Shown: piece by piece, positions 1,203 to 4,320 of the stretch
Layout of the letters: each line of letters starts with the position of its first letter
Numbering within the stretch: position 1 is the stretch's first letter
IMG/VR virus record: IMGVR_UViG_2534681998_000007
Source: a virus
Lineage: Duplodnaviria > Heunggongvirae > Uroviricota > Caudoviricetes
Strand: one strand, 5' to 3'
Length of the DNA stretch: 5,859 nucleotides
Translations under genes and position numbers: made by a program
Notes under the pieces: model-generated
What the model saw: the letters and a program-made list of their open reading frames with translations, nothing else
Database searches by the model: none
Told to the model about the DNA's origin: nothing

Positions 1203-1228
1203 CAATAAAAAACACGCTCGCGGCGTGT
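1203..1228 (-). terminator. Intrinsic terminator about 60-80 nt downstream of the late promoter (tR'-like)
   Basis: Minus-strand RNA reads ACACGC-CGCGA-GCGTGT followed by UUUUUUAUUG (plus stem 1212-1217/1223-1228, A-run 1203-1211). No T-run on the plus strand, so it is unidirectional. Confidence 0.65.
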
Positions 1229-1290
1229 GTCTGTCGCGGTCTCTATCCGGGGTTCCTAATCCCGACGCCAGATTTTGCTGGCGCGTGAGG

Positions 1291-1320
1291 AATATAGCCC
1301 CGGATAACAGATTGAGTCAA
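1291..1320 (-). promoter_or_regulatory. Sigma70 promoter overlapping the Q-like stop codon (pR'-like late promoter)
   Basis: Minus strand: TTGACT (plus 1315-1320), 18-nt spacer, TATATT (plus 1291-1296). The -35 hexamer contains the TGA stop of the upstream Q-like ORF. Predicted start near plus 1283, giving a roughly 80-nt RNA ending at the 1203-1228 terminator. Confidence 0.55.
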
Positions 1321-3226: not shown

Positions 3227-3249
3227 AAAAAACCCGCCGAAGCGGGTTT
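3227..3249 (-). terminator. Intrinsic terminator of the hok mRNA
   Basis: Minus-strand RNA: AAACCCGC-UUCG-GCGGGUUU followed by UUUGUUG (plus stem 3233-3237/3242-3246, extendable to 3230-3249). UUCG tetraloop. Located about 70-90 nt after the hok stop. Confidence 0.7.
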
Positions 3250-3267: not shown

Positions 3268-3316
3268 ATGCCTGACACATCAGAGGTGGCGGGAGATTAC
3301 TCCCCCGCCTGGTCTC

Positions 3317-3472: not shown

Positions 3473-3529
3473 AGCCTGCTTCTCCTTGCCTTTCGGCACG
3501 TAAGAGGCTAACCTACATGTGTTCAGCAT
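3317..3529 (-). CDS. mok: mok-like leader ORF (70 aa), in-frame N-terminal extension ending at the hok stop
   Basis: ATG at 3529 with GAGG about 9 nt upstream; shares stop and frame with hok, as in chromosomal mokC/hokC as I recall their annotation. Whether it is translated is inferred from locus architecture. Confidence 0.55.
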   Translation of the reverse strand: MLNTCRLASYVPKGKEKQAMKQQKAMLIALIVICLTVIVTALVTRKDLCEVRIRTGQTEVAVFVDYESEK

Positions 3530-3590
3530 GGATTGAGCCTCAGATTAATGTTAAGCGTCTTGCAGGACGCGTAATGTTAACTGGGGCTTT
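3521..3590 (+). ncRNA. sok: Predicted Sok-like antisense RNA (approximate coordinates)
   Basis: By analogy with hok/sok, the antisense RNA is encoded opposite the mok translation-initiation region. Only a weak plus-strand promoter is visible (TTGCCT 3486-3491, 17-nt spacer, TAACCT 3509-3514) and I could not find a clean terminator, so the ends are uncertain. Confidence 0.3.
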
Positions 3591-3629
3591 TCTCTATCTG
3601 CCGTTGGTGTTCATGCCCGAGGCAGATAG

Positions 3630-3645
3630 CCTCAAGCACCCGCAG
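3630..3645 (-). promoter_or_regulatory. hok mRNA 5' complementary box (tac/ucb-like), partner of 3252-3267
   Basis: Sits immediately downstream of the predicted hok promoter. The mRNA 5' sequence ...GGGUGCUUGAGGCUAUCUGCCUC... resembles the 5' end of plasmid R1 hok mRNA as I recall it. Followed by a 9-bp stem (3594-3602/3621-3629). Confidence 0.5.
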
Positions 3646-3647
3646 CA

Positions 3648-3675
3648 ATTCTACTTAACTATCCTTTTCCCGCAA
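3648..3675 (-). promoter_or_regulatory. Predicted hok mRNA promoter
   Basis: Minus strand: TTGCGG (plus 3670-3675), 16-nt spacer, TAGAAT (plus 3648-3653). Predicted start near plus 3640, giving a roughly 415-nt transcript to the 3227-3249 terminator, close to the known size of hok mRNAs. Confidence 0.45.
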
Positions 3676-3682
3676 ACCGTTT

Positions 3683-3766
3683 TTATCCCCAGCGGCAAAT
3701 CGAATACACCACCAGCGCCACCGCCATCGCAATTCCTACCGTTGTGAATGCTTCAGGCCAGGTCAT
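3683..3766 (-). CDS. Small 27-aa hydrophobic ORF (MTWPEAFTTVGIAMAVALVVYSICRWG), absent from the ORF track
   Basis: Translated by hand. The ATG (plus 3764-3766) overlaps the TGA stop of the DUF551-like gene (ATGA) and is preceded by AGGAGGTG at 5-nt spacing. Predicted single transmembrane helix; TAA stop at 3683-3685. Confidence 0.35.
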   Translation of the reverse strand: MTWPEAFTTVGIAMAVALVVYSICRWG

Positions 3767-4320
3767 TGATTCACCTCCTGCGGCGGTTCTGGTAGCGACA
3801 TCCAGTGGGTTGCTTGCCTAAGATCATTACCCGGACTAACTGCTATACCTCCGCGCCGGAACGTGCCTCCGAGATAGCGTGCGGAATATATTAATGGCCC
3901 AGCCTCGCTATCGATATTCATCGAAATAAGCACGTTCTGGCTCTTTTCAGGCATTCGCTCAGTACAGCTTATCCAGCCATCCAGAGTTATCGGAGATCTG
4001 GTTGACGTTTCCGAGATTTCCCGAAAATTGTTGGTTGACGAATTCTTATTTTCCCGAAAGTTTCCGGCCTGAAGCATGGCGACGCGGCAGGCGTTCCAGC
4101 CATCAGCATATGTTTTAGTTACACCGTCGAGATGGCAGGTAAGCAAATCCATTTCATCAGGCACTACCATTGCTATCGGCTCTGCTTCCAGTGATGCCAG
4201 CGCGATACGAAACACATTAGCCAGCAGGCTGTCTGAAGACTTGTTATCGTGCGCCGAGTCGCTCAGGAAGCCTGTGATGTATGATTTAATCTCCGCGCGT
4301 TCTCTGGTAATAGTGCTCAT
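3763..4320 (-). CDS. DUF551-like phage protein, 185 aa
   Basis: Complete ORF with AAGGAAA SD about 8 nt upstream of the ATG at 4320. The C-terminal region GWISCTERMPE...VLIS...GGIAVS...THWMSLPEPP matches the DUF551 pattern as I recall it. Confidence 0.65.
   Translation of the reverse strand: MSTITRERAEIKSYITGFLSDSAHDNKSSDSLLANVFRIALASLEAEPIAMVVPDEMDLLTCHLDGVTKTYADGWNACRVAMLQAGNFRENKNSSTNNFREISETSTRSPITLDGWISCTERMPEKSQNVLISMNIDSEAGPLIYSARYLGGTFRRGGIAVSPGNDLRQATHWMSLPEPPQEVNQ

Follow-up and report, generated by a model that had tools for sequence, protein, structure and literature searches.

The closest described relatives of the element considered here are two systems in which small RNAs are linked to an antirepressor gene, the immI region of phages P1 and P7 and the isrK locus of the prophage Gifsy-1. 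The element itself is a promoter with a short terminated RNA, read at positions 1320–1203 on the minus strand of a 5,859-nucleotide stretch of DNA from a tailed virus of the Caudoviricetes (IMG/VR record IMGVR_UViG_2534681998_000007; this whole stretch is referred to as the window). The immI region is said, following the work of Citron and Schuster in 1990 and 1992, to run in the order a1 b1, c4 antisense RNA, a2 b2/icd and ant. An earlier note on the window, based on its letters, had interpreted 1203–1320 as a late-control module of the lambdoid pR'-qut-tR' layout. We consider it probable that the unit is instead the first part of a portable, RNA-controlled antirepressor cassette, and that the late promoter linked to the neighboring Q-like gene lies at 453–339. 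The earlier interpretation held as far as a Q-type protein, a short RNA and a promoter over the Q stop codon are concerned; the assignment as pR'-qut-tR' was wrong, for the unit is IsrK/c4-a1b1, with which an antirepressor cassette of the c4 type begins at its 5' end. The practical value of the distinction is the correct annotation of a unit that is easily mistaken for a late promoter.

At the Gifsy-1 locus the order is antQ, PisrK, IsrK, orf45/STnc1160, anrP and isrJ (Hershko-Shalev et al., 2016; PMC4825925). PisrK drove lacZ and the transcription of anrP in that prophage, a 77-nt IsrK RNA ending at a Rho-independent terminator was detected, and partial read-through gave rise to an RNA of ~910 nt that ends at the isrJ terminator (PMC4825925). 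Translation of anrP rose ~140-fold when IsrK was supplied in trans, AnrP raised expression of the antQ operon and induced the prophage, and STnc1160 was described as a stable processed RNA from the orf45 region (PMC4825925). The definitions of the C4 (RF01695) and c4-a1b1 (RF03163) motifs go back to Weinberg et al. (2010; PMC2864571), and a 2025 review carries IsrK and c4 as separate entries.

All sizeable open reading frames (ORFs) of the window lie on the minus strand, and the element is therefore read as the reverse complement of 1203–1320. It begins with a PisrK-type sigma-70 promoter (1320–1291, minus strand) composed of the -35 hexamer TTGACT at 1320–1315, an 18-nt spacer and the -10 hexamer TATATT at 1296–1291, with a consensus match of 10/12 in a scan of the window. 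The near-consensus promoter described in the earlier note was thereby borne out, as was its overlap with the end of the upstream gene, for the TGA stop codon of a 184-aa ORF (1319–1317) falls within the -35 element. The predicted RNA extends from ~1286/1284 to ~1207, a length of 77–80 nt, and its fold (-24.3 kcal/mol) contains exactly the three hairpins that the note had named. Hairpin 1 (1285–1265) has the stem CGCGCCAG/CUGGCG(U). Hairpin 2 (1264–1248) has the stem CGGG/CCCG and carries in its loop a sequence designated box b1, AUUAGGAAC, at 1260–1252; a second sequence, box a1 (GAGACCG, 1243–1237), is single-stranded in the fold. The third hairpin is the intrinsic terminator ACACGC-CGCGA-GCGTGT (1228–1212), followed by TTTTTTATT with a U-run at 1211–1206, which agrees with the terminator previously placed about 80 nt downstream of the promoter. 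Four Rfam families, namely isrK, c4-a1b1, C4 and sok, reached their gathering score in the window, the sok match lying further upstream and having no relation to the element. The isrK family (RF01394) scored 69.4 bits against a gathering score of 50 and aligned over model positions 1–77 of 77 with 1284–1207 of the minus strand (E 8.5e-14), defining an IsrK-family small RNA of ~77 nt, and c4-a1b1 (RF03163) scored 47.8 bits at 1297–1244. On these sequence grounds, the minus strand of 1203–1320 is a promoter with an IsrK-family small RNA, a known kind of element. The short terminated RNA proposed earlier is predicted here, and its 77-nt homolog IsrK has been detected experimentally in Gifsy-1 (PMC4825925).

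The reality of this promoter-leader-terminator unit rests on homology and not on consensus or thermodynamics. Promoter-like sites in the window were not above chance (5, versus 8.0 ± 2.9 in shuffled sequences), terminator-like sites in the window were not either (7, versus 5.4 ± 2.3), and the fold of the IsrK region had a z-score of only -1.39. The homologous material consists of 12 aligned cassettes, comprising those of the window, phage pPE4, an E. coli genome, one Salmonella prophage (two copies), VT2-Sakai, four other E. coli phages, Min27 and a Klebsiella phage. Conservation and covariation of the unit extend across this set, in which four genera are represented. The -35 sequence TTGAC is invariant in all 12 cassettes, and the 18-nt spacing with a TATATT -10 hexamer is found in 11, the Klebsiella copy deviating at -10. 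Compensatory changes are seen in both 5' hairpins; in hairpin 1, three of the six base pairs are changed on both sides, and in hairpin 2 the five pairs are 98% paired. The terminator is seen in all 12 cassettes with its stem in different registers, so that its pairs go uncounted by alignment column.

Downstream of the terminator, a C4-type antisense RNA occupies 1181–1097 of the minus strand (RF01695, 67 bits against a gathering score of 45) and is the equivalent of Salmonella STnc1160/'orf45'. This region folds at -42.9 kcal/mol (z -4.28) with a long closing stem, and it exposes two further boxes: a' (UGGUUUC, 1139–1133) in a hairpin loop and b' (GUUCCUAA, 1126–1119) in an unpaired stretch. 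The translation-initiation region of the next gene, ant, then follows at 1094–1049 and contains box b2 (1094–1086), box a2 (GAAACCA, 1065–1059) and the Shine-Dalgarno sequence AGAGGG (1056–1051), ahead of the ant ATG at 1043. Box a2 ends 2 nt ahead of the Shine-Dalgarno sequence in the window and overlaps it in pPE4 and the Salmonella copy. Boxes b1 and b2 are identical, AUUAGGAAC occurring twice where 0.04 matches were expected. The ant gene (1043–462, minus strand) encodes a 193-aa ORF6N-domain protein (Pfam ORF6N, 69 bits), a predicted antirepressor equivalent to AnrP/Ant, and its homologs in phage records carry the antirepressor annotation.

The boxes change together. In each of the 12 cassettes b1 equals b2, both are the exact reverse complement of b', and b2 lies ~45 nt upstream of the ant start. 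The b1/b'/b2 sequences are UUAGGAAC / GUUCCUAA / UUAGGAAC in the window, UUAGCAC / GUGCUAA / UUAGCAC in pPE4 and UUGGCGU / ACGCCAA / UUGGCGU in VT2-Sakai; seven alleles occur among the 12 cassettes, and that of the window has a 1-nt insertion that is coordinated across b1, b' and b2. Helices of 7–8 bp between the b boxes and of 6–9 bp within the a1/a'/a2 trio can be drawn in every cassette. The b1:b' helix is 100% paired, with four of its seven pairs changed on both sides, and the b':b2 helix is 97.6% paired with four compensatory pairs, its two unpaired cells stemming from one Salmonella row that is misaligned at b2. In the pair counts for IsrK, 99.5% of cells are paired, and the covariation score of 0.359, against 0.137 in shuffles, was not reached in any of 500 shuffles, while controls in which the segments were slid fell to 20–50% paired. 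Cognate duplexes also have better energies than non-cognate ones; for example, the C4 loops pair with IsrK at -39.2 versus -30.0 kcal/mol.

The Salmonella prophage with two copies (Salmonella enterica CP191473, designated L013) has one isrK-C4 cassette in the nin region (290–476) and the other after the Q-like gene (3588–3768), with the box alleles UUUGCAC and UUGGUCU; given that the alleles differ, the two cassettes should not cross-react. We suggest tentatively, and with less than even confidence, that the box pairs might serve as an address code, by which the IsrK of one prophage could unlock co-resident antirepressors of the same allele while others stay silent. Such a code, if real, would amount to an RNA network of cross-talk or insulation among the many lambdoid prophages of enterohemorrhagic E. 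coli (EHEC) and Salmonella. In the present locus, it would be connected in series to a late switch of the Q21 type, the promoter of which the cassette would have displaced 870 bp downstream.

The arrangement of the boxes suggests how the cassette might work. The PisrK-type promoter would fire without Q, and most transcripts would end at the intrinsic terminator to yield the 77–80-nt RNA, with b1 in a hairpin loop and a1 single-stranded. Transcripts that read through would carry the C4-type RNA, then b2 and a2, the latter abutting the ant Shine-Dalgarno sequence, and finally ant; because C4 lies downstream of the IsrK terminator, it would be made only from these transcripts. Pairing of a' and b' with a2 and b2 is predicted to block the ant ribosome site and leave ant untranslated, and IsrK, which bears the same boxes, may free that site by competing for C4 itself or for the C4 segment within the long transcript. 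The antirepressor would then inactivate the prophage repressor and turn on the early genes, the Q-like gene included, after which Q could act at its own late promoter at 453–339.

This arrangement resembles immI of P1 and P7 in having an RNA of C4 fold with two loops complementary both to an upstream box pair and to a pair ahead of the antirepressor gene, and its covarying specificity alleles recall the logic of P1/P7 heteroimmunity. It differs in that an intrinsic terminator stands between the a1b1 RNA and C4, and for this reason a free decoy RNA would be made. The window also has no icd-like gene, and its antirepressor is an ORF6N protein of a lambdoid prophage; between c4 and ant, the only candidate for an icd-like ORF was one of 27 codons that overlaps C4 and whose length is not conserved. 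The likeness to Gifsy-1 is closer still in gene order, which is the same: a Q-like gene whose stop codon lies inside the isrK -35 element, a terminated small RNA, a C4-like RNA, an ORF6N antirepressor, a second promoter-terminator unit and lysis genes. The Q-like gene of the Salmonella relative L013, a locus of the Gifsy-1 type, is 87% identical. Differences from Gifsy-1 include the box allele of the window, UUAGGAAC, with an extra base in all three copies; an upstream ORF of 27 codons instead of 45, with no overlap with the ant start; and a second unit that gives no Rfam match to isrJ and is an isrJ analog by position. Repression of the ant ribosome site by C4 as an antisense RNA is the present reading and was not proposed for Gifsy-1 (PMC4825925).

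Two alternatives concern the events within the cassette. By analogy with phage P4, C4 could pair with nascent a1 and b1 and promote termination at 1228–1212, in which case IsrK would mainly be a product of autoregulation. C4 and the CI RNA of P4 belong to the same Rfam clan (CL00128), an analogy between seqA/CI and IsrK/STnc1160 was raised for Gifsy-1 (PMC4825925), the terminator stem follows a1 at a distance of only 9 nt, and the long transcript increased 8-fold with IsrK in trans (PMC4825925), as expected if titration of C4 relieves termination. The terminator is nonetheless a canonical hairpin with a U-run that needs no helper, constitutive STnc1160 worsened the toxicity of IsrK (PMC4825925), and attenuation leaves unexplained both the position of b2 and a2 beside the ant ribosome site and their covariation. 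We regard attenuation as the principal role of C4 as unlikely, although it is compatible with the antirepressor control favored here.

The second alternative, which we judge to be no more likely, is that the Gifsy-1 mechanism applies unchanged, with IsrK opening the ribosome site of orf45 and ribosomes re-initiating at ant through a stop-start overlap. Its basis in Gifsy-1 is that start-codon and premature-stop mutants of orf45 reduce activation and that the stop and start overlap as AUGA (PMC4825925). The counterpart of orf45 in the window is the 27-codon ORF (1177–1094, minus strand), which opens with the ATG at the 5' end of the C4 RNA and retains two in-frame ATGs, at 1177 and 1165, 12 nt apart. 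The 1-nt insertion in box b' has shortened this ORF, leaving the first base of its stop codon 53 nt ahead of the ant ATG, so stop-start coupling of the Gifsy-1 kind cannot operate in that form here. Across the 12 cassettes, the ORF that begins at the C4 5' ATG ranges from 14 to at least 49 codons, with stop positions that are not conserved; conservation is found in the fold of the RNA and in its pairing boxes, which indicates that the C4 region is maintained as RNA and not as protein.

The next alternative bears on the Q-like gene and its late promoter. The 184-aa protein encoded upstream (1871–1317, minus strand; ATG at 1871, TGA at 1319–1317) had been taken as a probable antiterminator that could not be placed in a Q family. 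The first part of this statement is supported and the second is not, for profile searches place the protein in the Q21 family through DUF1133. Its Pfam scores are 354 bits for DUF1133 and 27.5 bits for PF06530, the latter just over the cut-off of 26, and PF06530 has been equated with the Q21/Q933W family (Yin et al.). A profile of 18 diverse DUF1133 proteins identified the Q21 chains 6p18_P and 6jnx_P in the Protein Data Bank (PDB; E 6.4e-8), and hhalign aligned DUF1133 with residues 6–151 of phage 21 Q at 96.4% probability (E 1.1e-9), while a PDB search with the 184-aa sequence alone gave a marginal Q21 match (E 0.018). Aligned with Q21, DUF1133 shows an additional stretch of ~30 residues and little of the long loop in the Q21 helix-turn[loop]-helix, which is consistent with a different DNA site. 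By eye, no convincing 8-bp direct repeat resembling the Q-binding element (QBE) of Q21 was present in the spacer of either promoter. An AlphaFold2 model built on an alignment of 18 close homologs was too poor to be of use (mean predicted local distance difference test [pLDDT] score 51.5, predicted template modeling score [pTM] 0.37). In pPE4 and in E. coli ML35, whose intact copy lies around position 2,290,000 of NZ_CP025747, the DUF1133 gene is the only Q-like gene and the last early gene, standing before a holin-endolysin lysis cassette. DUF1133 is mentioned by none of the papers in the library that was searched. By sequence comparison, the 184-aa DUF1133 protein is a distant homolog, AntQ-like, of the Q21-family antiterminators.

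In the phage 21 record (OL657228), the gene for Q21 is followed by a -35 element seven bases past the stop codon, a spacer containing the QBE, a -10 element, the transcription start, a sigma-dependent pause element, TAAGCT, at +2 to +7 and a terminator. A comparable unit (453–339, minus strand) lies ~870 bases downstream of the PisrK unit, right after ant, and is a candidate late promoter and leader for the DUF1133 Q. Its parts are a -35 hexamer TTGCAT (453–448), a 17-nt spacer, a -10 hexamer TTCAAT (430–425), 5 nt and TATGCT (419–414), the latter being -10-like and a candidate sigma-dependent pause element, after which come a leader of ~77 nt (RNA 418–342) and a strong terminator (372–339); the unit folds at -36.7 kcal/mol (z -4.46). 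The likeness to phage 21 (Yin et al., 2019; OL657228) thus extends to a -10 element, a gap of 4–5 nt, TAnGCT, a short leader and a terminator, and the difference to the ~30 extra residues of DUF1133, the largely missing loop and the 8-bp direct repeat, of which none was recognized by eye. The unit aligns base for base with DNA directly 3' of DUF1133 Q genes that have no cassette (673R7, 683R6), and its leader core was found only there. The motif TT[CG]AAT-N5-TA[N]GCT has 23 matches in 456 kb of loci, all on the Q strand and all linked to DUF1133, at -1 to +22 relative to the DUF1133 stop codon, at +605 in Pantoea, behind a hok/sok module, and at +860 to +889 behind an isrK-C4-ant cassette, the latter in the window, pPE4 and the Salmonella prophage. 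No Rfam family matches the 453–339 unit, and isrJ in particular went unmatched in both the window and the Salmonella locus, also when short stretches were scanned with a limit of E 10, so that the link to isrJ is one of position only. A lysis cassette lies downstream of the candidate late-promoter unit in ML35 and pPE4. From these comparisons we infer that the late promoter matching the Q-like protein is the 453–339 unit after ant. Salmonella IsrJ may then be the leader RNA of a late promoter, and the same may hold for other RNAs in its position.

The DUF1133 family has a habit of overlapping the Q stop codon with a -35 or -10 element. An instance is seen in 192-aa DUF1133 genes of the Klebsiella/Enterobacter type (L007, L008, L018, L022, L023, L026, L028–L030, L032, L034 and L035), whose ORF crosses its own late promoter with the -35 element coding and the TGA inside the -10 hexamer TTGAAT (position -1); the last ~12 residues of these proteins are thus encoded by promoter DNA.

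Against this background, the original proposal, that 1320–1203 is a Q-dependent pR'-qut-tR' at which DUF1133 loads to carry RNA polymerase into the late genes, with the 80-nt RNA as a 6S-like leader, must be judged improbable. Several points speak for it. The unit begins at the Q stop codon with its -35 element over the TGA, an arrangement shared with other DUF1133 phages; a short leader and an intrinsic terminator follow; intact relatives have lysis genes further downstream; homology of the 184-aa protein to the Q21 family is real; and the word qut is absent from the Gifsy-1 paper (PMC4825925). StxS and the lambda 6S RNA are likewise short RNAs produced by tR' termination at lambdoid late promoters (StxS: PMC12197685), and the resemblance of the present RNA to them lies in promoter-proximal termination, a length of ~75–80 nt and a position just downstream of a Q gene. 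Those RNAs arise from a Q-dependent promoter, however, and the description fits RNA 418–342 here and not RNA 1284–1207.

The element also lacks the expected marks of a late promoter of this family. No TAnnnT, and hence no -10-like pause element, occurs in the initial transcribed sequence, CCTCACGCGCCAGC, and the first seven transcribed bases contain none; the only -10-like hexamer is CAAAAT at +8 to +13, in the loop of hairpin 1, and it is replaced by CGAGTT in 2 of the 12 cassettes. The spacer of PisrK shows no relation to the one conserved in DUF1133 loci, whose last bases are AAACTGC. By contrast, 28 of 31 informative DUF1133 loci carry the other conserved unit, represented at 430–414 in the window and consisting of TT[CG]AAT or a close variant, 4–7 nt and TAnGCT; five of these are near variants, and the locus L011/L012, where an insertion sequence (IS) element interrupts ant, was uninformative. 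The first gene downstream of 1320–1203 is an antirepressor and not a late gene, and the Gifsy-1 read-through RNA ends after ~910 nt at the isrJ terminator, the corresponding distance here being ~944 nt.

Inheritance points in the same direction. Unlike the phage 21 late promoter, which it also fails to match in the pause element, the 1320–1203 unit is not inherited with the Q gene. Among 25 complete or near-complete DUF1133 genes, from a scan of representative genomes with one genome per species, isrK and C4 follow the stop codon in only three (E. coli, Shigella flexneri and Salmonella), and the cassette is also not present at the DUF1133 loci of phages 683R6, 673R7 and Rac-SA53 and several Klebsiella phages. 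Conversely, the same promoter and leader, 77–94% identical, occur in Shiga toxin (Stx) phages, 2–3 kb upstream of an unrelated Q with its own pR'. In VT2-Sakai, the stretch from ninE to roi holds the cassette, 2.5 kb upstream of Q, and the promoter region of that Q is followed by tRNAs and stx2. Min27, PhiR12_2, PhiR5_2, phiSTEC1589 and phi346 have it in comparable positions of the nin/early region, and its neighbors in Stx phages are ninE, ninB or a methylase gene on one side and roi or ninG on the other. Homology between the window and the Stx phages starts exactly at 1320, the -35 element, and extends into the N-terminal half of ant, which marks the PisrK-type promoter as the left boundary of a portable cassette.

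The junctions of the cassette suggest how it came to adjoin the Q gene. Q genes that bear it differ in their C-terminal tail. The Salmonella copy keeps the old Q end, ...aaaaaacggc(ccg)tTGA, fused to the -35 element of the cassette, where 683R6 has ...aaaaaacggctTGAtttttt, and aaaaaagttcTTGCAT downstream of ant resembles the 3' end of another type of DUF1133 gene (L019). The simplest reading of these sequences is that the cassette entered the DNA between the end of Q and the late promoter, so that the Q frame is now closed by the TGA contained in TTGACT; such an insertion would account for the overlap of the promoter with the Q stop codon. In Pantoea osteomyelitidis (L021, 3553–4200), a hok/sok module lies between the DUF1133 stop codon and the late-promoter signature at +605, and the junction of Q and late promoter seems to be a repeated insertion site. 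The Q/isrK junction itself is present in 108 of 5426 complete E. coli genomes, in 40 of them at ≥99% identity, and in the best 8 of the 108 the only RefSeq annotation under the junction is the DUF1133 gene.

A chance pair of promoter-like and terminator-like sequences without function, to which the counts of such sites in shuffles and the fold z-score of -1.39 might lend themselves, is refuted by the Rfam match (E 8.5e-14), by covariation in 12 cassettes from four genera and by a homolog that is an experimentally detected RNA.

The interpretation of 1203–1320 as the opening unit of an antirepressor cassette builds on direct observation of the cassette anatomy, of the complementarity and covariation of its boxes, of its portability and of the location of the Q-linked signature. 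Several points weigh against it. Every functional statement is carried over by analogy from Gifsy-1 or P1, and the Gifsy-1 model itself invokes alternative structures within one RNA molecule together with orf45 translation (PMC4825925), where the present reading has a free C4 repressor at the ant ribosome site. Mutations of the IsrK box in cis raised, and did not lower, the basal translation of anrP in Gifsy-1 (PMC4825925), a result that a pure decoy model does not predict and that disfavors it. Co-expression of STnc1160 gave no relief of IsrK toxicity, and overexpressed AntQ antiterminates globally (PMC4825925). The a-box helices are short (6–9 bp, some with G-U pairs) and the cognate advantage is modest. 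Finally, the late promoter at 453–339 is weak by consensus, TTGCAT matching at 3 of 6 positions, and the scan of the window did not list it. A P4-like effect of C4 on termination and the published intramolecular switch are possible contributors alongside a decoy.

With IsrK, C4, c4-a1b1 and the Gifsy-1 locus on record, the element is of a kind already described. What may be considered modestly new is that DUF1133 can be assigned to the Q21 family, that a late-promoter signature is shared across the family and here lies after ant, that the box code is explicitly three-way, and that isrJ-position RNAs may be viewed as late-promoter leaders. IsrK is tied in this way to the c4 logic of P1, and TT[CG]AAT, 5 nt and TAnGCT constitute a testable late-promoter signature for DUF1133 (AntQ), while the general picture of prophage control is unchanged.

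Some further observations concern the surrounding DNA and its relatives. Two records with DNA or protein 90–98% identical to this E. coli-type prophage region are labeled 'Actinobacillus phage vB_Apl-pPE4' (L002, PP818812) and, in the case of a metagenome-assembled genome contig, 'Candidatus Nanosynbacter' (L017), and the host or bin assignment of both looks doubtful. A tRNA search of the window found no tRNA genes downstream of the unit of the kind present in Stx phages. The first ORF past the second terminator (341–20, minus strand; also L044, 2729–4055) is a 65-aa hypothetical protein in RefSeq and would be 106 aa long from a GTG start. The prophage of O145:H28 is cut off by an IS3 element shortly past this 65-aa ORF. 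In E. coli ML35, the ORF is followed by a helix-turn-helix protein and three tRNA genes (Ile, Arg, Arg), where Stx phages have tRNAs and stx. Elsewhere in the window, a hok/sok toxin-antitoxin module occupies 3641–3317 of the minus strand, with the Rfam sok match at 3641–3467 (113.5 bits) and a 70-aa Hok/Gef ORF at 3529–3317. It is followed by a terminator at 3249–3230, and an Rfam match below threshold, isrK-/rsmX-like, at 3314–3227 (24–27 bits) probably reflects only that terminator region.

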